A stretch of DNA of 63,666 nucleotides, filler included, from Reclinomonas americana ATCC 50394 (GCA_048213135.1; 12 parts of 12 records of this genome joined end to end with filler, not necessarily neighbours in it), one strand, 5' to 3'. Positions 13,710 to 63,134 are shown, numbered from the whole stretch's first letter. The notes: generated from the letters alone by a model not told the origin. Program-made: numbers and translations.

Positions 13710-13923
13710 CTTCAGCGGGAGGTGGGGGAGAAGGTGGAACTCCTAGCCATCGAATGATCCGTGCCTCGATCTTCATCGCAGTTGTCGGTGACAGAAGAAG
13801 AAGCTTTTCATAAACCCTCTTGTTTCCTTGTGGCCATCTGCCTGTCTCCCTCCCACCCTGTGTGGAAAGTCATGCAGACCGCCTTACGCCTTCAAGTCTC
13901 GTCACAGACGTCGACAAAGGTAT

Positions 13924-13943
13924 CGTCCTACTTGAAAAGGACA
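13924..13943. promoter_or_regulatory. Dyad CGTCCT-N8-AGGACA upstream of WD40 F
   Basis: Arms retained in a more diverged paralogue; spacer acttgaaa. Confidence 0.45.
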
Positions 13944-13985
13944 GCGCATTCAACCGTCCTTCTCTCCCTCCCTCTCTCACGCATC

Positions 13986-15122
13986 ATGTCCTCCTCCCCT
14001 CCCTCGCTCCCAAGCATCTGCCTGCGCGGCCACACCAACGCCGTGCATTCTATCGCTATCACTCCCGACGGCCAGCGCATTGTTAGCAGCAGCAGTGATG
14101 GAACAGTTCGCGTGTGGTCACTGGTGACTGGTGAAGAAGAGCGGCGGTTGAACGGTCGTCCCAACTTGATGCTGTCTCTCGCTGTGACACCCGACGGTCA
14201 GCGCGTTGTCGGCGGGGGTGCTGATTCGACGATTCGAGGCTGGTCATTGGTGCACGTGAGCGGAGAGGAGGTTCTCCACTTTAATGGTCACACCCTGGCT
14301 GCGATGTCTGTTGCTGTCACCACCGATGGGCAGCATGTGGTGAGCGGGAGTGCAGATGACACCGTGCGAGTGTGGTCACTGGCGAGCGGCGAGGAGGTGC
14401 GACGATTGAAGGGACATAAGCAGCGAGTTTCCTGTGTCGCACTCACGCCCAATGACGAGTACATTGTGAGTGGAAGCCTAGATAAGACCGTGCGAGTGTG
14501 GTCACTGACGAGTGGCGAGGAGGTACGACGGTTGGAGGGACACACGGGAGGTGTGTACTCTGTCGCCGTCACACCCGACGGCCAGCACGTTGTGAGCAGC
14601 AGTAGTGTCACAGTGCGTGTATGGTCGATGGCGAGTGGGGAGGAGTTGCGACGGTTGGAGGGACACACAGGCTGGGTGATGTCTGTCGCCGTCACTCCCG
14701 ACGGTCAGCACGTGGTGAGTGGCTCCCATGACAAGACAGTGCGCGTGTGGTCACTGGCGAGTGGGGAGGAGGTGCGACGGTTGGTGGAGCACACGGATTA
14801 CGTGCTGTCTGTGGCCGTCTCCCCAGATGGTCAGCACATTATCAGCGGGAGTCGGGATCGCACCGTGCGCGTGTGGTCCACGCCGTGCGGCCTCGCGCGG
14901 CAAGAGCTCAGATGCGCGCAGTCGGCCATGTGCGCGGTGCAGGAAATGCAGCGAGACGTGGATGAGGAAGATCCTGATCCTCGCTGCTTGGTGGAGATTG
15001 TCATGCGGTGTTTCATGGTCGAGGAGGCCGAGGTCGTCGTCCATCGATGCTTCTCGGATGGCAGCCGTTGCATCGTACCATGTATGATCCAAGAGCAGCA
15101 GCTTAGGGTTGTGACTGTGTGA
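13986..15122 (+). CDS. WD40 protein F (7 repeats plus tail), intronless
   Basis: Start MSSSPPSLPSICLRGH matches paralogues; seven WD repeats; tail TPCGLARQEL...DPRCLVEIVMRCF. Confidence 0.9.
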   Translation: MSSSPPSLPSICLRGHTNAVHSIAITPDGQRIVSSSSDGTVRVWSLVTGEEERRLNGRPNLMLSLAVTPDGQRVVGGGADSTIRGWSLVHVSGEEVLHFNGHTLAAMSVAVTTDGQHVVSGSADDTVRVWSLASGEEVRRLKGHKQRVSCVALTPNDEYIVSGSLDKTVRVWSLTSGEEVRRLEGHTGGVYSVAVTPDGQHVVSSSSVTVRVWSMASGEELRRLEGHTGWVMSVAVTPDGQHVVSGSHDKTVRVWSLASGEEVRRLVEHTDYVLSVAVSPDGQHIISGSRDRTVRVWSTPCGLARQELRCAQSAMCAVQEMQRDVDEEDPDPRCLVEIVMRCFMVEEAEVVVHRCFSDGSRCIVPCMIQEQQLRVVTV

Positions 15123-20533: not shown

Positions 20534-23126
20534 TTACACGCTCTGCTCAACTGGCAGGGCGTTCGTCGTCTTGACGCGCCGGCGCACATTGATGTGCGGC
20601 TTGCCATTCTCGACCTCCGCCGCCACCACCACCTCCGCAGCCACGTCCTCCTGCTTCTCATCTTCCTCCTCCCCCTCCTCGTCGCTGCTCACGCTTCCCT
20701 CACTTGCGCTTGCGCTGCTGCTTCCGCTGTCGTGCTCGACGAGCACCGGTTCCGGATTGGTGGCCTTGATCCACGAGGTGTACAGCTTCTTCTCGTCGGA
20801 CAGATCGCCCGACAACTCACGCAGCACCTCGTGCAGACCGCCGCGCCGCAGGAGAATCGAGCGCACCACACACGGCGCCAGTGGAAGGTGCGGCTTGAGC
20901 TTGGCCAGCACTTGCTGGGCGTCGCCGGGATCGGCAAAGTGCCGGGCCACCAGGGCGGTGGCCTCCGGGAGACTCATCAGCGGAATCTCCACCTCCAGAT
21001 CGACACGGCCGCGGCGGCGCAGTGCCGGGGGCAGCTTGTCGCGGTAGTTGGTGGTGAGGATGTAGACGATCTTGCCTGGGTGGTCTTCCTCCAGGATTTG
21101 TTGCACGCTGTGCACGATTTTGCTGCGCGGAGAGAGGGAGAAGGTGGGTGAGGAGGGAGATGAGGGGAAGAGTAGGGGAAGGGGAAGGGGGATAATGGGA
21201 AAGGAGAGGATGAAGGAGGCGTGGAGAAACGAGCTGGGTTGGGTGCAACAGAGTGGAGACAAGCAGAGTGGAGACAAGCAGATGAGACAAGCAGATGGAG
21301 ACAAGCAGATGGAGACAAGCAGAGCGAGACAAGCAGAGCGGAGACAAGCAGAGCGGAGACAAGCAGAGCGGAGACATGCAGAGTGGAGACATGCAGAGCG
21401 GAGACAAGCAGAGCGGAGACATGCAGAGCGGAGACACGCAGAATGGAGACACGCAGAGTGGAGACATGCAGAGTGGAGACATGCAGAGTAGAGACAAGCA
21501 GAGCGGAGACATGCAGAGCGGAGACACGCAGAATGGAGACACGCAGAATGGAGACATGCAGAGTCGAGACAAGCAGAGTGGAAGCAGATGAATAAGCAGA
21601 GTGAAACGCGGAGAGCGGAATGTGCAGAGTGAAGACAGGCAGAGTGGAACAGGAAGAGTGGAGACATTCAGAGTGGATGCCGAGTGAGCCAGCGAGAGTG
21701 GACAAAATCACACGGTAGAAAATGACGAAGGGAGTATGACGTGAGAGTGAAACGAGGCAGCAGGGAATACGAGGTGTGAGTGTGCGACAACTGCAAATAT
21801 CTCTCTCTCCCCCCTTCCCTCTCCCCCCTTTGCCCTCTCCCCCTCTCCCCTTCCCCTTTCCCCCTTGCCCTTCACCCCCTCTCCTCCCACCTGTTGTCAA
21901 GAATCACATCGATATCGTCGAGCAGGATGATGGTATCCTCCTGGCACACGGGCGGCGTCATGCTGGACTCGAGCGCCGAGTGCGACAACGCAATGACGTT
22001 CATCTGTGGCGATGGAGGTGAGCGAAAGAGGCATGAGATGTGTGAATCGTGATTTCCCGCACCTGGTACTTGTGACTCAGCGTCCACACGAGCTGTGCGC
22101 ACACAATGTGAGTACTCATTTGTCGTTGCAAGTATGCGCACGTTATGTTTCACTCACCGTTGTCTTGCCCGTTCTGCACGCAGAGAGAACACAGCCGGTG
22201 AGCAACTCGCTTTCATCTCCCCCTCCCTCGTGCAACTCGCACTCACCCTGGAGGTCCATGCAGCAGAATGCCCGTGTGCTTGCTGTCGGTCTGATTCAAG
22301 TCGAGGAAGGACTCCAGGTGATTGCAGACTCGTTCCCACACCTCTGGCGCGTACACAGAATTCGCCTGTGGCACACGGCGAGGATACACGGAGCGATTGC
22401 TGTGGAGGTACGTCGAGCGACTCTGGTGCTTGGCAAGGAAGCGCTGCAGGCGATCCAAGTCGAGCAGCACGCCTGTGAGGCGGAAATTGGCACTGACACG
22501 AGCCGCCGAGCCGTCCACACTGCGCATCGCCCAAGAGGTGAGAAGACAAGAAGAAGTACAGAAAAGTTGCGTGCTTCTGCTCACCGTCGCACCGCGCTTC
22601 CAGCCTTCTCGCCATTGTCGTACGTCAGCCTGCGGGGGAAGAATGAAGGTAAGAAGGAGAGACAAGGTGATCGCCACTTCGTCGCTGACGCACCACGCCG
22701 GCATGCCCTCGATCCACAGCATCTTGCTGAAGTTGTCTTCGGTGGAAATAGTGACGCGGGCCGGCTTGCCACCACGCGCCGGTTTCATCACCATTGGCAT
22801 CGTGGATCGGCTGACACCGGCCTCGGTGACCAGTGCCTTGACGGCGCGTCGCAGCGTCTTGAAGTGCTTGTGGCCCTGCCGACAACGGAGTCAGTGCCTT
22901 TCCCCCTGGCCCATACGCGGTGCGACGCAACTGCATCAAAGGTGTAGGTCCGTACAATGCGTCGCAGCGGGAACAGTGCAATGTCCAGCAGCCAGTTCAG
23001 CAATCGATGGAATGCACCCTGTGCCACCGTGAGGAAGAAGGCCAGCATGGTGCCGAAGATGATCTGCGACATGAGCGTCGACTGCGTCGCCTCGGCTGGT
23101 GCGTGCTGTTGAAGTAGTGGGTCCAT
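20534..23126 (-). CDS. BCS1-like AAA+ ATPase, multi-exon
   Basis: N-terminal TM segment; GILLHGPPG|TGKT Walker A split by an intron; IILLDDID Walker B; ILTTNYRDKLPPALRRRGRVD SRH; acidic tail. Confidence 0.85.
21248..21600. repeat. Intronic 15-bp minisatellite (gcagagYggagacaN)
   Basis: More than 20 tandem units in the last intron of the AAA gene. Confidence 0.85.
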
Positions 23127-40928: not shown

Positions 40929-41370
40929 TCTATGTGTGTTGTGTGGAGGGGGAAGTGGGCGGGAGGAGGGGGTTTTTGTTTGCTGGTTTGTTGAAGGAGG
41001 GGGGCGGCGAGAGGGAAAGAGTGCAACAATGGGTGGTGTTATTAATTGTGGGAGGAGGGAGGGAGGGGATGAAGGGGAAGGGGGAGGGAATGAAGGGGAA
41101 GGGGGAGGGGAAAGGGGAAGGGGGAGGGGAAAGGGAAGGGGAAGGGCAAGGAGGGGGTGGGGGGTAGCAGGGGCAGNNNNNNNNNNNNNNNNNNNNNNNN
41201 NNNNNNNNNNNNNNNNNNNNTTAATTAATTAANNNNNNNNNNNNNNNNNNNNNNNNNNNNNNNNNNNNNNNNNNNNAGGTCACCCCTCTGCTCCCTCTTT
41301 CTCTCCTATCGGACCTTTCTCTATTCCTTGGAGCATGTCAGAGATTGCAGTGGATAGAAATTATTCACTG

Positions 41371-43015
41371 TCACCCCTTGGCCTGGTTTCGAATCCACAC
41401 GCACAACTCATCAAGCCCTTCCCCCGTCACGGCACTGACGCGACATACGGCGCATGGGCCGCGATTGATCTCCGAAAACTCCACTTGCAGCATGTCTTGC
41501 AGCTCCGTGGGATCGACAAGCGAGTCGCAATCGCTGTTGCCCAGGTGGTGTGAGCAAAAGGAGAAACGACAAGCGAAGAGATGATGGCGACGCACCTCTT
41601 GTTAAAGACGACGACGGTTGGTCGCGCGGGGTCGTGTATTCTCAAGAATTCGACCACGGCCTCGGCCACCGCCGTGTGGTTCGTCAGGTCAATTACGTAC
41701 TGCGGGAGAACGGGAAAGGTGGATAAGGTGATGCGGCGGACAAGAGCACACGGTCCGCGCAAAGGCTGACTGTCTCTCGCAAGGCTGACTGCCTCTCGCG
41801 AGGCTCGCTGTCTCTCGCGAGGCTCGCTGTCTCTCGCGAGGCTCGCTGTCTCTCGCGAGGCTCGCTGTCTCTCGCGAGGCTCGCTGTCTCTCGCGAGGCT
41901 CGCTGTCTCTCGCGAGGCTCGCTGTCTCTCGCGAGGCTCGCTGTCTCTCGCGAGGCTCGCTGTCTCCGCGAGGCTCGCTGTCTCTCGCGCGGCTCGCTGT
42001 CTCTCGCAAGGCTCGATGTCTCTCGCATGACTCGCTGTCTCTCGCAGGACTCGCTGTGTCTCACATGGCTAGCTGTGTCTCAAATGGCTCGCTGTCTCTC
42101 GCATGACTTGCTGTGTCTCACATGACTTGCTGTCTCTCGCAAGGCTCGCTGTCTGAACCCATCTCCTCCTCCTCCTCCTTCTCCCCCTCCTCCTCCCCCT
42201 CCTTCTCCTCAAACTCACCATCAACGACCGACAATGCGGTAACCTATGCTCCCACATGACCGTAAACGTGCCGCCAATCTCCCGCATCGTACACGTAAGA
42301 CCACCACCACAGTGCACCAAAGTCGGACCCATGCCACGCTATAAAGCAGAGAAGAAGGACGTGAGAGAGAAAATGAGAAAAAAGGCCAGAGAAGATAGGA
42401 TGGACGTAACAGTGGCAAAGTACTCTTCCTTGGCCGCGTTCAACAGCGGTTGACCAGTGCACAGAGCTGGGGAAAGAAGGCAATAATGAGAGAGGAAGCA
42501 AAGGATCGTGCTCTCTCTCTCTCTCTCACTCATTCACGCAGTTCACCCGTCTCTCTGTCTGTCTCTCTTCCTCTTGCTGTCTCACCTTCCTTCCTCCCTC
42601 CCTCTCATCTCTCTTCTCCCAACCTCTCTCAACCTCTCTCAGTCTCACTCAGTCTGACTCAGTCACTCAGTCTCTCATTCTCTCTCTCAGTCTCTCTCGG
42701 TCTCTCTCTCATTCTCTCTCTCAATATCTCTCAGTCTCTCAGTCTCCCTCATTCTCTCTCTCTCAGAATCTCTCAGTCTCTCCCACATTCTCTCTCTGTC
42801 TCTGTGCATCTCCTCCTCAGCCTCTTGCTTTCTCGCCTTCTCTCTCTCTCTCTCAGTCTCTCTCTCTCTCTCTCATTCTCTCCTTCACTCTCACTCCCTC
42901 TCTTCTCTCTCTCCCTCTCTCATCACTCACCCTCCAGTTGCTTGATTAACAGCGACTTGCCACACTTGGACGAGCCAACCACCAACACGTCATCGACCAA
43001 CGGCGAAGAAGTCAT
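41371..43015 (-). CDS. ARL16: ADP-ribosylation factor-like protein 16-like GTPase
   Basis: VLVVGSSKCGKSLLIKQL; REIGG (ARL16-type G3); YVIDLTN; VVFNK; SAVTGEGLDEL, across GT-AG exons. Confidence 0.8.
41790..42150. repeat. Intronic 19-bp minisatellite (aggctcgctgtctctcgcg)
   Basis: Near-perfect tandem units, degenerating at the edges. Confidence 0.9.
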
Positions 43016-43165
43016 TGTAAGAAAGTCAAAGACGAACAAGAGCGTCGCGTTGTGTCCTCCATGACACTCTCTTTCATTCTCCCTGATTGGAAGAGCCGCG
43101 TGAGAGCAAGTCGACTGTGTGTAAGAACAAGTGAGAAGCTGCAGCAAAACAAGTAGCAACGAAGC

Positions 43166-44211
43166 ATGTCGGTGAGTGACATGATGCTTGTGCTGTCACT
43201 CTTCTCTCTTCTCTCTCCGTCTCTTCTCTCTCTCACTCTGTGTTAGTGAGCGTGCGTCTCTCTCACACACACGCTCTCGGACTCTCTATCTCTTATCATA
43301 TCTGTCTCAATTCACATACAGACACACTCTTTTACGAACCCTTCTTCTCTCTGTCTTTCTCTCACTCTCTTCCACGCACACATGCTCTATCTCTCTCATT
43401 CATTCACTCTTTTTTATCTTCTCATCCCTTTCTTATCTCAGTCTATCACTTTCTCGCTCATTCGGATATTCAACCACACTTCCTTGCACTGCTTTGTTCT
43501 CCCACTTGTTCTCTCCCACTTATGTGATCTCTCCCACTCCCCCTCTCTCATACGTTCTCAGTCTTTCTGTCTCACTCTCTCTCACGCACACAAACAGTCT
43601 CTGTCTATTTCTTCTCGCCTTATCATTCACTTGCTCTTTTATCTTTCCCTCACTTTCCTCACTCTCTCTCCCTCCCTGCCTCTCTCTCTCGCCCCACCTT
43701 TCCTCTCATTCACTCGCTCTTTTTATCCCCCCTCCTTTTTCACTCTCCCTCCCTCCCTCACTTCCCCTCCCTTTCCACTCTCCCCCATCTCTCTCTCCCT
43801 CTCTCTTTCTCACTCCTTCCCTCCCCTCCTCCACAGTTCTCGGTGCACGTGAGCGCGGCACACGATTCGTTGCTCTCGGTGCAGGTCGACGGCATGTCGA
43901 TCGCATCCACCCTCGCCGACTTGCTGCGCGAGGCCACGCGCTTGCTGCGTGCGAAGAGTGGAGATGGAGAGATGCAGATTGTGGGAGTGGAGAAGCCGAG
44001 TGCATTCAGCATTGAGGAGGGCGGAGGCATTCCGTTGCGCATTCTCGGCATCAACTCGTCCACTCACCTCGTCGTCCGTGTGAACCTTCGCGTGGTGGCG
44101 CTGTCGAGTGGNNNNNNNNNNNNNNNNNNNNNNNNNNNNNNNNNNNNNNNNNNNNTTAATTAATTAANNNNNNNNNNNNNNNNNNNNNNNNNNNNNNNNN
44201 NNNNNNNNNNN

Positions 44212-44273
<62 letters not shown>

Positions 44274-47200
44274 CCCTCCTTCCTCCTTCTTCACTCCCCC
44301 TTCTCCTTTTTCATCCTCTTTCCCCCTCCTGCAGAATGATCAACTCGCAGCGCATCAACATGGCCTTCGAGGCGGTGGAGGAGGCCGTTCGTCTGCGCTG
44401 TCAACGCTCACTGGCGCAATTCAGTCGCGATTACCCCGACTTTGATGTGCGCGCGTGGGTGCCGACATTTACCCCCGCCGGCATGGATACAGCGGCTGTG
44501 AAGGTGTGGCGAGAGCGACATGCTCCGCTCCAAACGGGACGAGTCGCCCTGTTCAAGGAGAAGCGGGCTGTGGCACTGGCCTGGCGCGCTGCCTTTGAAG
44601 CCGATCCCTCGTCCGACCCCCCGTGTGACGGTTTCGACACGACGGCACTCACCTCCATCATGTTGTACGGTGGCCTTGTGCAAGATGATGGTGGCAAGCT
44701 GCTGCTGATTGACGACACTGATGAACGCATGGCGGTGGAGGAGCTGAACGAAGTGAGAAAGGGGTTGGCGCACAAGGACTTGGTGCTGACGGATGCCAGT
44801 GTGCAGGAGTACCTTGGTGACGGCGGTGTCTTCCTGTCCATCCTCCTACTGCTGCAGGTGACGGCCGACGAGCATGCTCGATTATCAACTCGCATCTACG
44901 ATGCTCGTCACGTTCAGCTCACCGTCAGTACATTCGAGGAGCGTCTGCATCGACTGGCTGTGCGTGAAATAGCTTACTATCACGAAGACGAGAGTGTGCG
45001 CAAGGACATGCAGATGTATGTGCCACTGCTGTGTTCACGTGATCATGACGGGTCGCCGAGTGAGACGATGCCGGATCTCTTGTCGGAGGTGGATGTTTTC
45101 CTCTCCGACACCAACACCACACAGCGTGTGCTGGTGCTCTTCGGCAACAGTGGCGCAGGCAAGACCACCACCATGTCCGTGTTGGCCGAGCGAGCATGGA
45201 GACAGTGGCAGACGAGGGAGAGCAGGCGTGTGCCTGTGCGTGTGCCTCTCGGCGCTCTGCGCAACGCAGATGAGCGACTATTGGAGGAGGCATTGGAGCG
45301 ACTGTCGCCCGAGTTGGGATTCAGTGAGTCGGATGTGCGACGGCTGAAGGAAGAACCACTGCTGTTGTTGCTTGATGGATACGACGAGTTGTACCGTGGT
45401 GTGAATCTGTTTTTCAAGAACCAGCTGGATGTGTGTCGGAAAGTGAAGGTGATTATCACGTGTCGTGAGGATTACGCACTGACGGCGCTGGGTGGTGTAA
45501 CGCAGTATCGACGGTACTTTGCACCGGTGGATGCACGCGGCCAGTTGCGCATGCAGCAGCTGACGGAGCGACACATTGCGCCATTTGACAAGGAGCAAAC
45601 TGCGCAGTATTTTGAGCGACTCGTGCAACGGGATGGTGATGATGATGATGATGATGATGCCGATGATGAAGTGCGATGGTCGACTGCCGAAGAGTACATG
45701 CGTGCGTTGAAAAATGTGCGTGGACTGGACGCACTGGTGTCGAATCCGTTCATGTTGTCGGTGGTGGCTCGCGTGCTGCCGCAGTTGGTGGCGAGCGGAG
45801 TGCACCGACCGACTCGGTGTGATGTGTTTGACAAGTTTATTCGGCAGTGGATTGCGCGGGAGCAAGAGAGGCAGACGTGCCTCGGTGCGGAGCGTGTGCC
45901 AAATGAGGACACCTGTCTCGCATTCTGTGAGGGGCTGGCACGGTTGATGCACGAGACAAAGGTGGTTCGCGTATCCGTGACGGAGAGTCGGTCGGGTGAT
46001 GAGGAGGATGACTTTGGTGGCGCACCACTTGCCATGCGTCGACGAGTGGAAGAGGGACCATTTGACAAGTTCCTCGGTCACAAGAACCAGCATGTGCGAG
46101 TTTGCTGTCCGATTGTACGACGGTATGCGACGACGCAGTGGGGCTTTGTGCATCTATCGTTGCTGGAGCACTGTGTGGCGCGGCATGTGTTTGCGTGGGA
46201 CACGTGGGATGAGGAGAGGAAGATGACGATGCAAGATGTGCAGCAGCATGTGTTGGCGGTGCGACTATTGAACGACAGACCGTCACTGGTGGAGCAAGTA
46301 GCCGAGGTGGTGCGACGGTCTCATGCATTACAGGGGAGACTGTGGGAGGTGATTGAGTTGTCACGGGAGGTGGACAGTCGGCGAGTCGTGACGGCAGCCG
46401 CGAATGCAGCAACGGTGCTGTGCGCAGCGCAAGTGTCGTTCAGTGGGCGCGACTTGTCGGGAGTGCGAGTGAGGGGTGCGGATTTGAGAGATGCGGTGAT
46501 GCACAGGACGGTGTGGAGAAAGGCAGACCTGCGTGAGGTGAATATGTGCATGGCGTTTGCAAAGGAGGCGGATTTCCGAGGGGCGGATGTGACGGGAGTG
46601 AAGTGGCCGAGGAAGCCGTTGGTGGAGCACAGTGATTCGATCAACTCTGTCGTCGTCTCGCCAGATGCGCAGCACGTGGTGAGCGCAAGTGAGGATAAGA
46701 CGGTGCGAGTGTGGTCGCTGGCCAGCGGGCAGGTTGTGCACTTGTTGGAAGGACATGCTGGCGGGGTGCGTGCTGTGACCATCACTTTCGATGGCCAACA
46801 CATTGTGAGTGGCAGCGAGGACACTACTGTTCGAGTTTGGGCCATGGAGAGTGGACAGGAAGTGCAACGATTGGAGGGACACACTGCTACTGTGTGCTCT
46901 GTTGCCGTCACTCCTGACGATCAGTTCATTGTGAGCGGAGGTGGCGACAAGACCGTGCGAGTGTGGTCATTGGCGAGTGGGGAGGAGGAGCGACGGCTGG
47001 AGGGACACACCGGGTGGGTGTGGTCTGTCGCCGTCACCCCCGATGGTCAGCACGTTGTGAGTGGAAGCGGTGACAAGACTGTGCGGGTGTGGGCGTTGAC
47101 NNNNNNNNNNNNNNNNNNNNNNNNNNNNNNNNNNNNNNNNNNNNTTAATTAATTAANNNNNNNNNNNNNNNNNNNNNNNNNNNNNNNNNNNNNNNNNNNN

Positions 47201-48309
47201 TCGCGCGTCGCGGCGAGCTCGTCGTGAGTGGAAGTGAGGATAGAACGGTGCGTGTGTGGTCGCTGGAGAGTGGCGAGGAGGTGCGACGGGTGGATGGACA
47301 CTCTGGCTATGTGTCTTCCGTCGCTCTTACTCCCGACGGCCTGCACGTTGCAAGCGCGAGCGAAGACAAGACCGTCCGTCTGTGGTCGGTCGACAATGGT
47401 GAGGAGGTGCGGCGGTTGGATGAGCACGCCAGATCGGTGCGGTCGGTTGCCGTCTCTCGTGATGGGAAGTACGTGGCGAGTGCGGGTGGCTACGACAAGA
47501 CTGTGCGTGTGTGGTCCGTAGCGAGTGGAGAGGAGGTGATGCGGTTGGAGGGACACACCGACGCAGTGATGTCGGTCGCCTTTACTCCCGACGGGCAGTT
47601 TGTTGTGAGTGGCAGTTATGACATGACTGTGGGTGTGTGGTCACTGTCGTCTGGCCAGGAGGTGCGTTGGCTAAGGGGGCACACGGGTGAGGTGAAATGT
47701 GTTGCCGTCACTGCCGATGGCCAGTTTGTCGTCAGTGCATGTCAGGACAAGACGTTGCGAGTGTGGCCGTTGGCGGCGGAGAGTGGTGAGGGCGAGGTGC
47801 GACGGCTGGAGGGGCACACTAGCGTGGTGTGGTGTGTGGCCGTCACTCCCGACGGTCAGCAGACAGTGAGCGGGAGTCATGACAAGACTCTGCGGGTGTG
47901 GTCGCTGGCGAGTGGAAAACAAGTGCGGCGGATGGACGGGCACACCGGGTTCGTGCAGGCTGTTGCCGTGACCCCCGATGGTCGACGCGTTGTGAGTGGG
48001 AGTGAGGATCGCACAGTGCGGGTGTGGTCGCTGGCGAGTGGCGAGGAGGTGCTGCGGTTGGAGGGACACGGTTCGTGGGTCTGGTCAGTCGCCGTCACCC
48101 CTGATGGGAGGCACGTGGTCAGTGCGAGTGATGATCGGACGGTGCGGGTGTGGTCGCTGGAGGTGGAGGAGGGAGAGGGGGGGAAGGGGAAGGAGGGGGT
48201 GGGGGTGGAGGGGAAGGAGGAGTGTGTGAGGGGAGGTTTGCTTGAGCGTGTTATTGGGTCGTTCTTTGTGGCGGACTTTACCGGTGTGCGGTATGGAGAA
48301 GAAGAGTAA
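43166..48309 (+). CDS. NLR-like protein 1: Ubl - HEPN - NACHT - pentapeptide - WD40 (two internal gaps)
   Basis: Micro-exon ATGTCG|gtgagt at 43166; Ubl exon from 43837; large exon from 44335 with FDTTAL..RKGLAH, GNSGAGKT, LLLLDGYDEL, IITCR, NPFML, pentapeptides (RDLSG/ADLRD/ADLRE/ADFRG) and at least 12 WD repeats. Confidence 0.85.
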
Positions 48310-48697
48310 TTGTGACAAGGCAAGGGATTTGGAATGTGGTGGTTGGCAAGGGTTTTGTGGTCGGAGAAGAGTAAATGAGTGCCTAGACATTGGTGGTGTG
48401 GTCAAGGTCATTGTTGGCAAGGGATTTGGAATGGGTGAAGTCTGAACGAAGTAGTGGTTGGAGAAGAGAAAGGCAATGTGGACAATTGTTGCATTGTTGG
48501 AATGCGGTGGTTTGGAGAAGAGTGTCTGTGTGTGCTTATATCTATATCTACATACCTTGGTGGTGATGTGCCAAGGTCATTGTCGGTAAATGTGGTCATG
48601 CGTGACGTCGGAAAATTCAACGAGGCGGACAATAACTGTCGCTGTGCACTGAGACGGTGCTGTCTCTCTGTGCGCTTGTGAGGCAGTGACTTAGACT

Positions 48698-48923
48698 CTT
48701 CTTCTTCTTCTTCTTCTTCTTCTTCTTCTTCTTCTTCTTCTTCTTCTTCTTCTTCTTCTTCTNNNNNNNNNNNNNNNNNNNNNNNNNNNNNNNNNNNNNN
48801 NNNNNNTTAATTAATTAANNNNNNNNNNNNNNNNNNNNNNNNNNNNNNNNNNNNNNNNNNNNCTTCTTCTTCTTCTTCTTCTTCTTCTTCTTCTTCTTCT
48901 TCTTCTTCTTCTTCTTCTTCTTC
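48698..48923. repeat. (CTT)n microsatellite on both sides of a gap
   Basis: Direct observation. Confidence 0.9.
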
Positions 48924-48947
48924 TAGATCTGCTTGTCGTTTTCTAGC

Positions 48948-52768: not shown

Positions 52769-53899
52769 TCACCACTCCTCCGCACCGCGCTCAATCACCT
52801 CAGCATCCTCCAACACAAAGCACCGCAGCACAACGTCCACGAGAATCCACTCACGGCGCTTATCCTCCTCCTCCTCACCAAGCAGCTCATGGACGGCCGA
52901 CACAGCTGCCTTTGCGGCCGCCATCTCCTGCCGAGCGAGACCCCGCGCCGACGACCACACTCGTATCCTCTCGTCTCTGCACCCGCTCACAATGTGCTGG
53001 CCGTCGGGGGCGACGGCAACGGAATACACCGCCGCTTCGTGGTTCTCCAACCGTCGCACCTCCTCGCCGCTCTCGAGGCACCACACGATAATGCTTTGGT
53101 CTTGACTGCCACTCACAACGTACAGACCGTCGGGGGTGACCGCGACAGACCACACCGCGCCAGCGTGACCCTCGAGAATCCACCATTCGTCCCCACTCTC
53201 GAGAGACCACACACGCACCGTCTCGTCTCTGCTTCCACTCACCACGTGCTGCCCGTCGGGGGTGATGGCCACCGACAACACCGCTCCCGTGTGCCTCTCC
53301 AACCGCCGCACCTCCTCGCCGCTCTCAAGAGACCACACTCGCACGGTGCAGTCATCGCTGCCGCTGACAATGTGCCGCCCGTCGGCAGTGACGACGACAG
53401 ACCACAGTTGGTCCGTGTGGCCTGTCAAGCACAGCACCTCGTCGCCACTCTCGAGGGACCACACGCGCACTGTCTTGTCGCGACACCCGCTCACCACGTG
53501 GAGGCCGTCGGCGGTGACGGCCACCGACATTACCCCTGCGCCCACCGCAAGTCGCTGAACTTGTTGGCCAGTGGTCGCGCACCACACTCTCATCGTCAAG
53601 TCTTGACTCCCGCTCACGATGAATCGTCCGTCGCGGGTGCAAGCGGCACTCCACACCCAGGAGGTGTGGCCCTCCAGGCGGTGCAATTGGTGCCCACTTG
53701 CCAGCGATGACACGAGCACGGTCTTGTCGAAGCTGGTGCTGATGATGTGATGGCCGCGGGGGGTGAGGGTGACGGAGGAGATGGAGTGGTGGTGGTGGTG
53801 GTGGTGGAGGGTCTGTGGGGGGTGAGGGAGAGGGTGAGGGAGGACGGGGAGGGGGAGGGGGAGGAGAGGGAGGGAGGGAAAAGGAACTTTGCTCGTCAT
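52769..53899 (-). CDS. WD40 protein G (7 repeats plus tail), intronless
   Basis: 376-aa ORF; same repeat consensus; tail GLARQEM...WILVDVVLRCFVLEDAEVI. Confidence 0.9.
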   Translation of the reverse strand: MTSKVPFPSLPLLPLPLPVLPHPLPHPPQTLHHHHHHHSISSVTLTPRGHHIISTSFDKTVLVSSLASGHQLHRLEGHTSWVWSAACTRDGRFIVSGSQDLTMRVWCATTGQQVQRLAVGAGVMSVAVTADGLHVVSGCRDKTVRVWSLESGDEVLCLTGHTDQLWSVVVTADGRHIVSGSDDCTVRVWSLESGEEVRRLERHTGAVLSVAITPDGQHVVSGSRDETVRVWSLESGDEWWILEGHAGAVWSVAVTPDGLYVVSGSQDQSIIVWCLESGEEVRRLENHEAAVYSVAVAPDGQHIVSGCRDERIRVWSSARGLARQEMAAAKAAVSAVHELLGEEEEDKRREWILVDVVLRCFVLEDAEVIERGAEEW

Positions 53900-54061
53900 G
53901 TCACATATGAGGTGTTATGTGAACAAAGTTGCTCGCTGCATGTGTGATTGTCACATATCTCTTGAAGAGTATCGCGAGAGTGCACTGTGAGGCAAGTCCT
54001 TTGGCGACCTACGAAGAACTTCAACAACAGCAAATACAGCAACGAAGAACCTGCAATAAGA

Positions 54062-57000
54062 ATGTCGGTGAGTCGCGTGTTATTGAGTGAGTGGGGGACG
54101 CGACACCGAACAATTTCTGGGTCTCTCTCTCTCTCTCTCTCCCTCTTTCTTCTCTCTCTCTCTCTCTCAGACAGACACACGCTGATGTTTGTCATATTTG
54201 TCATGACAGTTCTCTGTCAAAGTGACTGCGGCGCATGATTCATCGCTGGCGGTGGTGGTGGAGGGCTTGACGACCATATCCACTCTCGCGGACTTGCTAC
54301 GCGAGGCCACGTGCTTGATGCGTTGGAAGAGTGGGGATGCGGAGATTGAGATTGAGGGAGTGGTGGAGCCCCTGCCATTCGACATTGATGACATGAGCGG
54401 AACGAAGCTGAAAGCATTAGGCATCAGCTCGTCCACCCAACTTGTTTTCCGCGTGAGGCATGGCGGGACATCGCTTTCAAGTGGCGGGTGTGTGTGTGTG
54501 CGCGTGTGTGTGTGTCAATGCTTCTGCAAACAGCACTCTGTTTGTGAACTCTAGAAGTCAATAGTAATCCATATGCCGTTGCGCGCGTGCAGGAAGCGGC
54601 CTGCTGAGTTGCCAGCATTCAACGAGTCTCGCACAAAGCGTCGGAGAACAGAGAATTCTGTGAACACTGCCGCTGCGGTGCCAATGGATGACGACGATGA
54701 TGCAGCGTCTGGTACAAGCAGTGGAGCCTCAATGGACGATTCCACCATGTGCGAGCGCGGGAGCGATATGCCGGAAGTTGATAGCGGTTCACGTGTGGAT
54801 GTGGTAAGTGCAGATTTGTCGGTGTTGATGTCAATTATTGTCAGACGCACTGCGTTTCTTGAGCACCTTGTTGATATATTGTGCTATAGGAAATTGGACA
54901 CGTCAGAATCGGCAACAAGCCTGTGATTGCAATGGATGACAGGTGCTGTAGTGGAGACGGTGCACGCACGCCTCATTTTTTTTTGGCGAGATCATTGATT
55001 CATTGCTAATTGCAGCTACTTTAAACTTGCTGTTGGTGGACTGTTGTCTGCTGGTCCGGGAACCGCGCCTGGCGTAAAGGAGGAGGCTGACACGGCGACG
55101 GTGGCGAGGTGAGTGTTTGGTTGTAGTTTGAAAGAATCGCTTATATGCACTGACTTTGGACGACAGGAGAATCAACTACAACCGCATGAGTATGGCTTTC
55201 GATGTAGTGGAGGAGGCCGTGCGTCATCGCTGCCAAAGCGCACTGGCACAGTTCAGTCGCGACCATCCCGACTTTGATGTGCGGGCGTGGGTGCCGAGTT
55301 TCACGCCTGCTGGCATGGATACGGCGTCGATAAAGGCATGGCGTGAGCGGCATTCTCCACTCCGATCTGGACGAGTTGCTCTGTTCAAGGAGAAGCGGGC
55401 TGTGCTGTTAGCCTGGCGTACTACTTTCGACACCGATGCCTCATCTGACCCTCCGTGTGACGGTTTCGACACAACGGCACTCACCTCCATCATGCTGTAT
55501 GGTGGCTTCGTTATGGATGACGGTCGCAAGCTGCTGCTGATTGATGATGTTGATGAGCGCAAGGCGGTAGAGGAGCTGAACAAAGTGAGAAAGGGATTGG
55601 TGCACAAGGACCTCATGGTGACGGGTGCCACTGTGCAACTGCACCTTGGTGACGGTGGTGTCTTCCTCTCCGTCCTCTCACGACTGCAGTTGACGGTGGA
55701 TGAGCGTGCTCGATTCTCCGCTCGTGTCTGCGAGGCGCGCTGTCTCGATTTCAGTGTCAGCATATTCGAGGAGCGGTTGCGTTGTCTGGCTGTATGTGAG
55801 CTCTCATTCTACCAGCATGACGAGAGTGTGCGCAAGGACATGCAGATGTATGTACCACTGCTGTGCTCCCGTGAGCGTGACGTCTCCTCGAGTGACAAGA
55901 TGACGGATCTCTTGTCGGAGGTGGATGCTTTCCTCTCCGACACCAACACCACGCAGCGTGTGCTGGTGCTCTTTGGCAACAGCGGGGCCGGTAAGACCAC
56001 TACCATGTCGGTGCTGGCTGAGCGAGCATGGCGGCAGTGGCAGACGAGAGAGAGTCGGCGCGTGCCTGTGCGTGTGCCTCTTGGTGCACTGCGAAATGCC
56101 GACGAGCGACTGTTGGAGGAGGCGTTGGAGAGATTGTCACCCGAGTTGGGATTCAATGCAGCGGATGTGCGACGGTTGAAGGAGGAGCCGTTGCTGTTGT
56201 TGCTTGACGGGTACGACGAGTTGAACCGTGCTGTGAATCTGTTCAACAACCAATTTGACGGATTTCGCAATGTAAAGGTGATTATCACCTGTCGCAGCGA
56301 TTACGCACTGACAGCACTGGGTGGTGTGACGCAGTATCGACGGTACTTTGCGCCGGTAGATGCACGAGGACAGTTGTGCATGCCGCAGTTGATGGAGAGA
56401 CACGTTGCACCATTCAACAAGGAGCAGATTCAGGAGTACTTTGAGCGATTGGTGCAATTGGGTGGTGATGATGTTGATGAAGTGCGATGGTCGACTGCCG
56501 AGGAGTACATTCATGCACTGAAGAGTGTGCATGGACTGGATGCACTGGTATCGAATCCGTTCATGCTGTCTGTGGTGGCACGTGTATTGCCGCAATTGGT
56601 GGCGAGTGGTGTGCAGCGGCCGACTCGGTCTGATGTGTTTGATCGCTTCATGCGACAGTGGATTGCAAGAGAGCAAGACAGGCAGACTTGTCTTGGGGCG
56701 GGTCGTGCGCCGAGTGAGGAGACATGTCTGGCGTTCTGTGAGGGACTGGCGCGATTGATGCATGAGAGGAATGTGGTTCGCGTGTCTGTGACGGAGAGTC
56801 TGTCGGGAGATGAGGAGGACGAGGGTGAATTTGGTGGCGCGCCACTTGATCGTCGTCGACGGGTGGAGGGGTGGCCATTTGACAAGTTCTTTGGTCACAA
56901 GAACCAGCATGTGCGAGTGTGCTGTCCAATTGTGCGACGGTATGCGACAACGCATTGGGGATTTGTGCATCTGTCGTTGCTGGAGCACTGTGTGGCACGG

Positions 57001-59262
57001 CATGTGTTTGCGTGGGAGATGTGGGATGAGGAGAAGAGATTGACGGTGCAAGATGTGCAGCAGCATGTGCTGGCAGTGCGCCTTCTGAATGATCGACCAT
57101 CGTTGGTGGAGCAGATGGCCGAGGTGGTGCGAAGGTATCCCCGACTACAGGGCAGACTGTGGGAGGTGATTTGGTTGTCGTGTGAGGTAGATGAGGAGCG
57201 AGTGGTGACGGCAGCAGCGAATGCAGCGACGGTGCTGTGCGCAGCGCAAGTGTCGTTCAGTGGACGAGATCTGTCGGGTGTGCGAGTGAGGGGTGCGGAT
57301 TTGAGAGATGTGGTGATGCATGGAACAGTGTGGAGGGGAGCGGATTTGCGAGGGGTGAATCTGTGCATGGCATATGCGAGGGAGGCAGATTTCAGGCAGG
57401 CGGTTATGTCAGGTGTGAAGTGGCCGAAGGAGCCGATGAAGGGACCCAGTGAGTCGTTGGCTTGTAGCATAACGGTCACTCCCGATGGCCAGTACATTGT
57501 TTGTGGAGGAACAGACGGTACAGTGCAAGTGTGGTCACTGGCGAGTCATGTGAAAATGCCGCCGTTGGAGGGACATACAGTAGCGGTGCGCTCGATCGCT
57601 GTTTCTCCCGATGGACGGCATATTGTGAGTGGCAGTGATGACATGTCAGTGCGAGTGTGGTCACTGGCGAGTGGCGAGGAGGTACGACGACTTCAGGGAC
57701 ACACTCGTGGGGTGACTTCTCTCGCTGTCGCACCCGATGGACAGCACATCGTGAGTGGCAGTGGAGACAATTCGGTGCGAGTGTGGTTGCTTGCGAGCGG
57801 AAAGGAAGTTCGACTTCTTGAGGGTCATACTCACGCCGTGCTGTCCATTGCTATCACTCCCAACGGACTGCACATAGTCAGCGGAGGTGAGGACAGCACA
57901 GTGCGTATGTGGTCACTGGCGAATGGGAAGGAGCTGCAGCGTTTTGATGGACACGGAGGTAAAGTGATCTCTCTCGCTGTCACCCCCTGTAATGGATACA
58001 TTGTGAGCGGAAGCGACGACAAAACAGTGCGACTGTGGTCGCTGGCAAGCAGGGCGGAAGTGGGACGATTCGAGGGACATGCTGGAGGGGTGCGAGCTGT
58101 CGCTGTGGCTCCCGATGGTCAGCAGATCGTAAGTGGGAGTGAAGACATGACAGTGCGAGTGTGGTCGCTTGCGAATGGAGAAGAAATTCGTCGATTGGAA
58201 GGCCACACTGAGTCGGTGCTTTTTGTTGCCGTCACTCCCGGGCCCGATGGTGAGCGCATCGTGAGTAGCAGCAAGGACCAGTCAGTGCGAGTGTGGTCGA
58301 CGGCAACAGAGAGTGGCGAAGGAGTACGACGGTTGGGGGGGCATACCAACTCCGTCTCTTCCGTCGCTGTCACTCCGGATGGTCAGTTCATTGCGAGTGG
58401 GAGCTTCGACATGACTGTACGGTTGTGGCATTTCGCGAGTGGAGAAGTGGTGCGATGTTTTAAGGGTCACACTAGAGATGTGTGTTCTGTCGCAATCACT
58501 CCTGATGGTCAGCATGTTGTCAGCGGAAGCCGTGACACTACCGTGTGCCTGTGGTCTGTGGCCAGTGGAGAGGCACTCCGGCGATTAGAGGGACATGCGG
58601 GACGAGTATATTCGGTCGCCATTACTCCCGACAGAAAGTACATTGTGAGTGGGGGGGACGATTTGACCGTGCGCTTGTGGACTGTCGAGAGTGGAGAAGA
58701 AGTGCGACTGTTAGAGGGTTTTGTATGTGGATTGTGGTTTGCCACCATCACTCCTGACTGTGCTCATCTTGTTTGCGGGGATCATGACCGGACAATGCGA
58801 ATACTGTCGATTGCTAGTGGAGAAACGCGATGGTTGGAGGGACACACAGATGCTCTGTCATCTGTTGCTGTGACTCCAGACAGTAAGCACGTTGTCAGTG
58901 GCAGCAAGGACAACACGGTGCGAGTGTGGTCCATGACTACTGGCGAAGAAGTGCGGCGATTAGTTGGACACATCGATACCGACGGAGTACGGACCGTCTC
59001 CGTAACCCCCGACGGTCTGTTCGCCGTAAGTGGCAGCTATGACGACACGGTGCGAGTGTGGTCTCCCTCACGAAGAGAAGAACTGCGACTTGGAACGCGA
59101 TATGACCGCGCCAATTCTTCAGCTGGCACTGCCGTCACTGTCGATCATACCGTTCGAGTGTCCGGGAAGTCGATTTTCGTGTTTCAGCGACACAGAGAGG
59201 GAGAGCTGCTTGAGAGAATTTTTGGTTCATTTCACCCCAATTTTACCGACGCATTGTACTAA
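54062..59262 (+). CDS. NLR-like protein 2: Ubl(GG) - NLS - HEPN - NACHT - pentapeptide - WD40 (13 plus 1 degenerate repeats); complete model
   Basis: Phase-consistent exons 54062-54067, 54210-54487, 54593-54803, 54890-54942, 55016-55108, 55167-59262; RKGLVH 55588-55605; Walker A GNSGAGKT, Walker B LLLLDGYDEL. Confidence 0.88.
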
Positions 59263-61101: not shown

Positions 61102-62268
61102 TCACCACCCCCGCGCCCTCCACACCACCACCTGCGCCTCCTCCACCATGAAGCACCGCATCACCACCTCCACCAAACACCTCTCATTGTGCGGCACCGC
61201 GCCACCTGCGCGCCCCCACCTCGGCATCATCGCCTGCACCGCCTTGCGGGCCTGCTCGGCGGCCGCCAACTCCCTTCGCGCCAGCGCCAACTCACTGGCC
61301 CACATGGTGATGGCGCCGGCGGCGTCGCCTGCCACCACGTACTGCCCATCGGGCGTGACATTCAGCGTCTGGTAACGCGGCGACGGCGCCGCCTCCTCTT
61401 CTTCCTCCTCCTCCTCCTTGTCAAAGACGGGCGTCAACTCGTCTCCGGTCTCCAACGACCAGCGACGCACCGACCCGTCGCTGACGAGCGCACAGAACGA
61501 CCGGCCGTGCGGCGTCATGGCCAGCTTCAAGGCGCGCACCGGCCACCGGCGCACCCTCCGCCCGCTGCTCAGCGACCACATGCACACCTCCCGGTCGCTG
61601 TTGCTCAACGCGTGCTCGCCGTCGGGCGTCACCACCACGTCGTGCTTGACGTGCCGATCGCCTCCGTACGGCCTCCCCTCCTCGTCGGCATCGTGCAGTC
61701 GCCGCACGAGGCCACCCGTGGAGGCCGACAGCACATGCACCGTCGGCTGCCCGACACAGCGGACAAGCACGTACTTGCCATCCACAGTGGCCGCCAACGA
61801 ACTGACATACCACGTGCGACTCGAGGTCATTACGCGCTGCCCGCTGGCGACCGACATCATATGCACGCAATGGTCGGTGCATCCGAGCAGAACGCGCTGT
61901 CCGTCGGCCGCCATGCACATGGCGGCATCGAACACCAAATCCGTGCTCACGCCCAACTCGAACTCGCGCAGGATCTGTCCGCTCGCAAACGACCACACCA
62001 GCACCTTGGCGCCGGGTCGGAAGCTCCCGCCAATGACGCACTCGCCGTCGCTGGTGCAGGCGACGGCCACCACCGGCTTTTTGTGGCCGTGATAACGGCG
62101 CCACTCGAGGCCATAATTGGCTCCTGTCTGGAGAAGGGACCAGGCGCGCACGAGGGCGTCTTCGCCGCCAGAGAGAATGTATTGCGAGTCGGCAGTGATG
62201 GTGAGAGCGAGAATGGCGCCGGTGTGAGCATGGAACGTGGACGATGATGACTGCTCCGTAGAGGTCAT
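61102..62268 (-). CDS. Divergent WD40 protein H with conserved tail, intronless
   Basis: AHTGAILALTITADSQYILSGGED and GHKKPVVAVACTSDG; tail LALARRELAAAEQARKAVQAM..ERCLVEVVMRCFMVEEAQVVV. Confidence 0.85.
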   Translation of the reverse strand: MTSTEQSSSSTFHAHTGAILALTITADSQYILSGGEDALVRAWSLLQTGANYGLEWRRYHGHKKPVVAVACTSDGECVIGGSFRPGAKVLVWSFASGQILREFELGVSTDLVFDAAMCMAADGQRVLLGCTDHCVHMMSVASGQRVMTSSRTWYVSSLAATVDGKYVLVRCVGQPTVHVLSASTGGLVRRLHDADEEGRPYGGDRHVKHDVVVTPDGEHALSNSDREVCMWSLSSGRRVRRWPVRALKLAMTPHGRSFCALVSDGSVRRWSLETGDELTPVFDKEEEEEEEEAAPSPRYQTLNVTPDGQYVVAGDAAGAITMWASELALARRELAAAEQARKAVQAMMPRWGRAGGAVPHNERCLVEVVMRCFMVEEAQVVVWRARGW

Positions 62269-63134
62269 CAATCGGAATAAGAAGGGTCTTTTTTTGGGAC
62301 TTGATGTGGGACACGGGAGAAAAGGGGGAAGGGAGAAGGGAGGGAGGGGATAAGGGAAGGGGAGAGAGGGAAAGGGATGGGACTAAGAGGCGAAAGGTGT
62401 GAGTGCGAGGTGAGCTGCGACGTCGACGTCTGTTCGGTTTTGTATGTTGCTGGGGAAGAGGTGTTGCAGAACATGTAATTAATGTGGGAAACACGAAAGA
62501 GAGCAAGCGATTGAAAACGAACAGCTGCGGATGAGAAAGGACTGGAGGAGGTGACTGAGCGTGGAGAGAGAGGCATGCGCAAATATCAACACTCAGCAAT
62601 TTTGCAGAACAACTGGGGAAAGTAGGAGAGGAAAGAAAAGAAATGGCACCCAACGAGTTGAGCGAGGACCACAGACGAAGGCGGCAGGCGACAGGGAGAG
62701 GATGGGAAGAGGACATCTCCATGAGCAAGCGACAGAGGAAAGAATCGAGCTGCAGAAGAGGGCGAAAGATGCGAAGGATCATGAGAGACATGCAAATCTC
62801 AGCACTGAGTGAGCATAGTATTCGAGCAGAAAGCAGCCCATGGTGTGATAGGAAATGTGCTCGGGAGGTGACCGCGAGGAAATCTCAACAGCACGCGTAT
62901 TAGGAGGAGGAGAAGGAGGAGGAGAGAGAGAGAGAGAGCGCGCGAGAGAGAGAGGGAGAGAAGAGAAGAGAACAAGCAGTACTCCAGGAGAATAAGTGAG
63001 GACCACAGACGAAGGCGATAGGAAGGGGAGACAAACAAACTCTCAGCATCCAGCCTACTTGCAGTACAGCTGAGCAAAGAATCTTTCCTCTCGACTCTCC
63101 ATTCACAGAAGCACCTTGCTCATCGGCATGCCCT

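Follow-up and report, generated by a model that had tools for sequence, protein, structure and literature searches.

A conserved NACHT half and divergent WD40 halves in two NLR-like paralogues of Reclinomonas americana: a probable recombinant mosaic

How two paralogous receptor-like genes can agree closely over one half of their coding sequence and lose all positional correspondence over the other is the question raised by a locus of Reclinomonas americana ATCC 50394 (GCA_048213135.1), where gene A (43166-48309, + strand) shares a stretch of 63,666 bases, hereafter the window, with its paralogue gene B (54062..59262, + strand). The first-pass annotation of this DNA had described gene A as a second NLR gene (NLR, NOD-like receptor; NOD, nucleotide-binding oligomerization domain), with the same effector and switch as gene B and a different WD40 sensor generated by repeat turnover. 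Our analysis, in which the models of both genes were built from sequence alone, indicated that gene A is apparently a real and intact paralogue of gene B, that both appear to encode STAND (signal transduction ATPases with numerous domains)/NLR-like proteins, and that the pair is probably a recombinant mosaic whose 3' half (WD40 array and tail) predates its 5' half, the two meeting at the boundary between the pentapeptide-repeat block and the WD40 array.

The eukaryotic window is cut by 11 gaps, each exactly 100 bases long and composed of 44 N, TTAATTAATTAA (a six-frame stop linker that forms the centre of every gap) and 44 N. Gene A extends over three contigs (41277-44111, 44212-47100, and 47201-48762), and gene B lies within one. 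The predicted features of the two genes are the following.

43166-48309, + strand: gene A, whole, on three contigs and with two gaps inside.
43166..43171, + strand: gene A exon 1, the ATGTCG micro-exon, followed by a GTGAGT donor; this 12-mer occurs elsewhere only at 54062.
43172..43836, + strand: gene A intron 1, 665 nt, CT-rich, GTGAGT...CCACAG (142 nt in the gene B counterpart).
43837..44111, + strand: gene A exon 2 (FSV...), encoding a candidate ubiquitin-like domain; it reaches the edge of the contig after two bases of a codon.
44112..44211, no strand: gap after gene A exon 2, which may hide counterparts of gene B exons 3-5, or nothing.
44335..45097, + strand: start of the gene A large exon, encoding an orphan, predicted all-helical N-domain of ~255 amino acids, with RKGLAH (Rx4H) at residues 141-146.
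45098..46405, + strand: gene A NACHT NTPase and the helical/winged-helix region that follows it (PF05729; Walker A at residue 270, Walker B at residue 343).
46406..46615, + strand: gene A pentapeptide-repeat block (PF00805), last residues GVKWP, with the A/B identity drop at its 3' end.
46616..47100, + strand: gene A WD40 blades Aa1-Aa4, as far as the contig reaches (PF00400, E=1.3e-44).
47101..47200, no strand: gap within the gene A WD40 array, hiding at least ~23 residues of one blade.
47203..48153, + strand: gene A WD40 blades Ab1-Ab8, the first of them partial, lying in the third contig (PF00400, E=2.9e-88, 8 stretches).
48154..48309, + strand: gene A C-terminal tail, Gly/Glu/Lys-rich and of low complexity, then LLERVIGSF; stop codon TAA at 48307-48309.
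54062..59262, + strand: gene B, the comparison paralogue, with 13 WD40 blades and a degenerate 14th.
54062-54067, 54210-54487, 54593-54803, 54890-54942, 55016-55108, and 55167-59262, + strand: predicted exons of gene B, all five introns being GT-AG.

The shared features that had been listed for the front halves of the two genes were confirmed. The micro-exon with its donor, ATGTCGGTGAGT, has exactly two copies in the window (43166 and 54062, both on the + strand; 0.04 expected), and two or more copies appeared in 0 of 100 shuffles. The second exon starts after CAG at 43837 in gene A and at 54210 in gene B, with TTCTC(G/T)GT encoding FSV in both; the pattern CAGTTCTCNGT has three matches in the window against 0.26 expected, two of them being these exon starts. 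The reading frame of this FSV exon stays open over 91 codons (gene A) and 93 codons (gene B), with 57% identity between them. The large exon begins at 44335 and 55167, respectively, and its first base completes a split codon in both genes, so that both share the claimed phase-2 intron at this point. Over the front half of the large exon, 611 of 753 aligned residues (81%) are identical, and the long identical NACHT stretches noted before are present as runs of up to 75, 37, 27, and 26 residues, the longest of which spans the P-loop region. The longest exact nucleotide match in the front half is only 35 nt, so this identity reflects purifying selection and not recent conversion.

Both proteins matched the NACHT (PF05729; 40.5 bits in A and 46.5 in B, cut-off 26.7) and pentapeptide (PF00805; 26.3 and 30.9 bits, cut-off 20.2) models, and the WD40 repeats that follow likewise exceeded their Pfam cut-off. 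The NACHT motifs are identical in the two genes and conform to the Walker A (GxxxxGK[ST]) and Walker B (hhhhD[GA]xDE) definitions, being GNSGAGKT at residue 270 and LLLLDGYDE at residue 343. The proposal of a common effector and switch therefore stands for the NACHT switch and for the N-terminal region, which is the same in both genes; the HEPN identity assigned to the effector is a candidate only, as discussed below.

This agreement ends abruptly. In sliding windows, a comparison that the first-pass annotation had proposed, nucleotide identity between the two genes is 92% at 46390-46479, 79% in the next 90 nt, and then 64% and 57%, which places a sharp step at ~46570-46620, just past GVKWP. 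Across this break, amino acid identity (50-residue windows) falls from 0.75-1.0 to 0.46-0.66 and third-position identity from ~0.7 to ~0.45. Synonymous (dS) and nonsynonymous (dN) divergence, calculated by the Nei-Gojobori method, showed the same division. Upstream, dS is uniform over 2.9 kb and at least two introns (0.57 in the FSV exon, 0.61 in the N-domain, 0.64 in NACHT, and 0.66 in the pentapeptide block), with dN of 0.33 in the FSV exon and 0.08 in NACHT; the dN/dS ratios of ~0.26 in the N-domain and ~0.12 in NACHT indicate that both copies are under purifying selection in the large exon. Downstream, dS over the WD40 array is saturated (1.72, 1.61, and 1.72 in three registers), and the non-repeat C-terminal tail has diverged as well, with a proportion of synonymous differences (pS) of 0.80 over 21 codons.

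The WD40 arrays were divided into 42-residue units, which gave four units, a gap, and then eight (the first partial) in gene A, and thirteen plus a degenerate fourteenth in gene B; unit spacing and blade number differ between the genes. The matrix of A-by-B blade identities has no diagonal, and its values (55-78% nt) lie in the same range as those of the A-by-A and B-by-B comparisons. When the blades were compared in every register, the best register for Aa1-4 (0.671) was matched by 1964 of 5000 shuffled B orders, and the best for Ab2-8 (0.641) by 3532 of 5000. As a positive control, two genes that encode WD40 blades only, W1 and W2 (7128-8612 and 8916-10082), reached 0.894, a value matched by 2 of 5000 shuffles; since these genes pair unit by unit, the method detects positional orthology where it is present. 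The nearest neighbour of an A unit was a B unit in only one of 11 cases (Aa2 to B6, 71%, at a different position), and in the control all six W1 units paired with the W2 unit at the same position (87-95% nt). The lack of blade-by-blade pairing claimed for the region after GVKWP is thus borne out, no register beating shuffled order, and the repeats do not cluster by position across the two genes; it was such clustering that the first-pass annotation had named as contradicting its reading. Comparison of blade i with blade i+7 within gene B, which would detect a propeller-level duplication, gave background identity only.

Diversifying selection cannot raise dS. In the front half, pS in 42-codon windows has a mean of 0.423 (sd 0.108, n=102), and the A-by-B blade pairs have a mean of 0.644, with one of the 120 pairs at or below 0.423. 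A duplication at dS 0.6 followed by mere reordering would be expected to leave about ten orthologous blade pairs near pS 0.42; the single pair found indicates that the blades of A and B are not one set in a new order. Taken together, the uniform dS of the front half, the saturated array and tail, and the sharp step speak for an exchange that took in the entire 3' half, or else for a homogenised 5' half, and not for blade-by-blade turnover since the duplication.

On the mosaic reading, the region from the FSV exon through the pentapeptide block would have had its last common ancestor at dS ~0.6, and the WD40 array and tail of A and B are no closer than any two blades of the WD40 family of this genome (dS ~1.6). 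Two histories could produce this pattern: one gene may have acquired its entire 3' half, through ectopic recombination, from a less closely related member of the family, or the genes may be an old duplicate pair whose 5' half was homogenised by a long conversion tract. Both would place the exchange point at the pentapeptide/WD40 junction. The pair would then represent a clean and quantifiable case of a switch half and a sensor half of different ages, relevant to the building of recognition repertoires through recombination of whole domains and not only through repeat turnover.

Several points weigh against this reading. Gene A is interrupted by two gaps; pS is noisy on 42 codons, 26 of the 120 A-by-B blade pairs lying below the 95th percentile of the front half (0.576); and the mean pS among blades within gene A (0.585) is slightly below the between-gene mean of 0.644. 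Protein collections searched contained no close relative, and the comparison, which covered these two paralogues only, would fit either direction of exchange and a 3' swap as well as a 5' conversion. In addition, an ESGEG insertion in the loop before VRRL is present both in Ab6 (47767-47901) and in B8 (58297-58428), which are not collinear; it hints at homology of some blades, and together with the differing unit spacings it suggests that blade gain or loss occurred at some time. Finally, the receptor function of these proteins and the effector role of the N-domain are matters that we only infer.

The explanation favoured by the first-pass annotation, a whole-gene duplication followed by blade-by-blade turnover (duplication, loss, and shuffling within or between arrays) that would have erased the positional match and created new specificity, appears unlikely. 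It would account for the unlike blade spacing and number, for the occurrence of the ESGEG insertion in non-collinear blades, and for Aa2 and B6 being mutual best matches at different positions. It also fits the strong 42-residue consensus of all WD40 blades in the window, from NLR and WD-only genes alike (~TVRVWSLASGEEVRRLEGHTxxVxSVAVTPDGQHIVSGSxDK), any two blades being 52-61% identical. According to the available part of Paoletti 2007, ordinary WD40 proteins have 10-20% identity between blades, so that the values observed here indicate a family built by blade amplification; this amplification, however, lies at a depth of dS ~1.5 and predates the split of the A and B front halves. A reshuffled set would moreover keep pairs at pS ~0.42, and only one of 120 does so. 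Recent blade birth inside an array should leave near-identical neighbours, but mean amino acid identity within the arrays is 61% in A (45 pairs) and 52% in B (66 pairs), and the best pair reaches only 81% (79% nt). The available part of Dyrka 2014 sets more than 85% identity over at least 100 aa for the turning-over or concerted repeats of fungal NLRs, and neither array attains this 85% level of high internal conservation (HiC). Turnover of repeats also leaves aside that the non-repeat tail has diverged and that the identity drop is a sharp step at a domain junction. The difference between the two sensors stands, and its origin by repeat turnover is not supported in the form proposed.

A scaffolding artefact, in which contig 47201-48762 would be the 3' end of another family member and the array of gene A partly a two-gene chimera, is very unlikely in our view, and the contig probably belongs to gene A. 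The gap at 47101-47200, whose real length may differ, does sit inside the repeat array, where it may conceal the point at which A stops and a third paralogue begins, and many similar WD40 arrays occur in the same window. The blades of the second contig are only marginally closer to those of the third than to those of B (~68% vs ~66% nt, hand means), which also counts on the side of the artefact. Against it, contig 47201-48762 lies on the same strand, carries on a WD40 frame and ends with an NLR-type tail motif found only at the ends of A and B (L[LIV]ER[IVL].GSF, whose only six-frame matches in the window are at 48238 and 59206). A (CTT)n run at its 3' end resumes across the next gap in the contig of gene B (48698-48762 and 48863-48924, on both sides of gap 48763-48862), and the contig after gap 44112-44211 opens with (TC)n (44212-44270); these microsatellites at gap edges indicate that at least some of the gaps are breaks at microsatellites, the contigs on either side being true neighbours. 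With the third contig left out of account, blades Aa1-4, which share a contig with NACHT, still do not pair with B. It is likewise quite unlikely that A and B are not immune receptors but STAND NTPases with housekeeping or signalling scaffold roles, their WD40 differences reflecting relaxed constraint. This would agree with an N-domain that belongs to no recognisable effector family and with genes known here from their sequence alone; yet the open frames and NTPase motifs are intact in both copies, blade variation falls at canonical top-face positions over a nearly invariant framework, the genes lie among clustered and expanded WD40 genes, a setting typical of recognition families that diversify, and the architecture fits NLR-like proteins as defined for fungi in the available part of Dyrka 2014.

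That definition comprises an N-terminal domain, a NOD, and C-terminal superstructure-forming repeats such as WD, ANK, or TPR (Dyrka 2014, available in part), and both proteins have an N-domain, NACHT, and WD40 units, at least 12 in A and 13-14 in B. The predicted order of parts is a short ubiquitin-like head, the orphan helical N-domain, the NACHT switch, a pentapeptide spacer, a WD40 double propeller, and a family-specific tail. By analogy with related families, the N-domain would be the presumed effector, possibly HEPN-like, and the double propeller of 12-14 blades the presumed ligand sensor; ligand binding on the top face of the propeller, where the variable columns sit, would promote NTP-dependent oligomerisation and then activation of the N-terminal effector. 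Between-blade variation is concentrated at unit positions 16, 17, 19, 35, and 37 (the x-V-x that follows GH, and the x-D-x of the tight turn), and the framework positions are nearly invariant. In the NWD repeats of Podospora, codons 7/9 and 25/27, two pairs 18 apart, are described as positively selected and ligand-facing in the available part of Paoletti 2007. This pattern of variable columns supports a recognition role of the propeller surface, and not recent turnover.

Homology searches identified seven proteins at E<=0.001 among 7999 scored candidates (best E 4e-48). The same set of Pfam domains (NACHT, pentapeptide, and WD40) is carried by homologues of Mortierellomycota fungi, of a Glomeribacter, and of a Streptomyces, with 25-31% identity. 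A hypothetical protein of Gryganskiella (P0004, E 4e-48) and a 'WD40 repeat' protein of Glomeribacter, a Burkholderia-related endosymbiont of such fungi (P0005, E 1e-36), resemble A and B in having NACHT, a pentapeptide spacer, and a long WD40 array in this order, and align from just before NACHT through the pentapeptide block with 27-31% identity. The Mortierellomycota and Glomeribacter proteins differ from A and B in their N-terminal part, the alignments beginning at query residues 134-264.

A comparable layout is seen in the HNWD/NWD proteins of Podospora anserina (het-e, het-d, as well as het-r; Paoletti 2007 and Chevanne 2010, each available in part), which, like A and B, combine NACHT with 42-residue WD40 units and a conserved front with a variable array. 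In both groups, two pairs of variable positions, 18 residues apart, lie on either side of a conserved V and of a conserved D. NWD repeats are, however, up to 100% identical within and between genes and evolve in concert (Paoletti 2007, in the part available), whereas the blades of A and B are 52-61% identical, none above 81%, and show no trace of exchange after the divergence of the front halves. Unlike HNWD proteins, A and B carry a pentapeptide spacer, and Pfam scans of their front halves gave no match to the HET domain. The pair, which would act in the manner of fungal-type NLRs, belongs to a NACHT-pentapeptide-WD40 class of NLR-like proteins and not to an HNWD-type family of high internal conservation. 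The evolution of NLRs as modules, with a conserved NOD and divergent or exchanged repeats, is well documented (Dyrka 2014, in the part available), and a conserved front with a variable sensor has already been described for immune receptors of fungi, plants, and animals, so a mosaic pair is not unexpected to specialists in NLR evolution in these groups. What the present pair adds is a NACHT-pentapeptide-WD40 NLR-like family from a eukaryote for whose proteins very large collections offer no close relatives, with an N-terminal region that has no detectable homologue.

The N-terminal region itself was examined for the two identities proposed for it, HEPN for the N-domain and ubiquitin-like for the FSV exon. 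Members of the HEPN superfamily are defined by a conserved Rx4-6H motif. The N-domain, 73% identical between the genes, has a conserved Rx4H at residues 141-146 (RKGLAH in A, RKGLVH in B), although other Rx4H strings occur in the same proteins and so short a motif, of six residues, is by itself weak evidence. Neither the N-domain nor its sub-fragments matched any Pfam family at E<=10 in either gene, and the N-domain had no PDB sequence match at E<=10. Its Atlas feature match to the HEPN_Swt1 cluster (0.79) is below the lead threshold of 0.9, and PADLOC returned nothing useful, only a weak generic P-loop match to mad8. The AlphaFold2 (AF2) model, computed from a two-sequence alignment, is all-helical with a mean predicted local distance difference test (pLDDT) score of 35.9, unusable for fold comparison. 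The lone phmmer match to the N-domain among 1.84 billion representatives was a bacterial protein containing 10 Big_12 Ig repeats in tandem, which we rejected as spurious, since repeated weak matches of these repeats add up. The same collection yielded no detectable relative for the FSV exon or for the initial ~130 residues of the N-domain. The odds that the N-domain is a HEPN domain are thus roughly even: the motif is conserved, and the label stays unverified by any HEPN profile match. A HEPN-type nuclease head before NACHT is common in the HEPN(DZIP3-like)-NACHT proteins expanded in cnidarians and molluscs, as described in the available part of PMC8260672; in A and B, by comparison, HEPN membership is not established, resting on Rx4H and the Atlas value only.

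For the FSV exon, three concordant leads give weak indications of a ubiquitin-like fold. The AF2 model (two-sequence alignment, pLDDT 43.7) has the order b-b-a-b-b-b-b, all named Atlas neighbours are ubiquitin families (0.88-0.90), and the Pfam model Ubiquitin_4 matched the gene B exon (E=0.062, 13.8 bits vs a cut-off of 22.8) and not that of gene A. No profile rose above its cut-off, and Foldseek found no match to the model at E<=0.001, so the ubiquitin-like label is retained as a candidate only. Some fungal NLRs carry ubiquitin-clan (Crinkler-type) heads, a small ubiquitin fold at the extreme N-terminus (Wojciechowski 2022, in the part available); unlike these, A and B matched no Crinkler or ubiquitin Pfam model above cut-off.

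The model of gene B, with its ATG at 54062 and the FSV exon from 54210, corrects an earlier placing. Exons 3-5 of this gene (54593-55108) form a predicted phase 2-2 cassette whose product is an acidic, KRRR-containing linker, and they have no counterpart in the visible sequence of gene A or elsewhere in the window. The counterparts in gene A are either inside gap 44112-44211 or absent; the FSV exon of gene A, which reaches the contig edge after two bases of a codon, would equally be compatible with splicing straight to the large exon. At 45630-45670, gene A has a coding (GAT)n microsatellite that yields a poly-Asp insert, DGDDDDDDDADDE, where gene B encodes GGDDVDE. Ahead of the common tail motif, a purine-rich Gly/Glu/Lys stretch of gene A (48154-48237) takes the place of the degenerate 14th blade of gene B (59062-59163).

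Six further genes of the window encode WD40 blades only, each a single propeller of ~7 blades.

7128-8612, + strand: WD-only gene (W1).
8916-10082, + strand: WD-only gene (W2).
10386-11258, + strand: WD-only gene.
12003-12851, + strand: WD-only gene.
13758-15122, + strand: WD-only gene.
52769-53914, - strand: WD-only gene.

These genes have a short MS(A/S)SPPSL head and a common helical tail, GLARQEL...DPDPRCLVEIV.RCF, unlike the tail of the NLR genes. The first, second, and fourth are recent duplicates, and between the first and the second dS is 0.18, their blades pairing at 87-95%. A search for a donor of the gene A array among the other arrays of the window found none: the best collinear block of four blades reached 0.704 (Ab4-7 vs W5_4-7) in 324 comparisons (mean 0.633, sd 0.028), and true paralogous blocks reach 0.82-0.90. 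It is a faint prospect that the WD-only and NLR genes form one exchange pool, in which whole sensor cassettes would be swapped onto a conserved chassis of ubiquitin-like head, effector, and NACHT at the pentapeptide/WD40 junction; if true, this would amount to a templated, cassette-level diversification of an innate receptor with a previously unseen effector domain.

Blade Aa4 (46967-47092) resembles blade 6 of the WD-only gene at 13758-15122 (14625-14750), with 85% nt identity, pS 0.33, and pN (the proportion of nonsynonymous differences) 0.09. Aa4 is closer to this blade than to any blade of B; both are consensus-like, and the likeness may be due to chance among many comparisons or to a short exchange tract. 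Among the WD-only genes, the copy at 10386-11258 drops the WD40 frame part-way and looks frameshifted, and the gene at 52769-53914 (- strand) is head-to-head with gene B, their starts being ~150 bp apart, so that they may share a promoter region. In a Pfam scan of 121 other open reading frames (ORFs) of the window (46 + 75), only WD40-type families and one GETHR repeat were found, and the remainder of the window showed no recognisable domains. A more divergent WD40 gene near the 3' end of the window (61105-62382, - strand) is ~29-35% identical to gene B blades by tblastn and has weak WD40 Pfam matches. The GETHR pentapeptide-repeat match (E 2.6e-13), the sole non-WD40 Pfam match among these 121 ORFs, lies in an ORF at 21176-21592 on the + strand.

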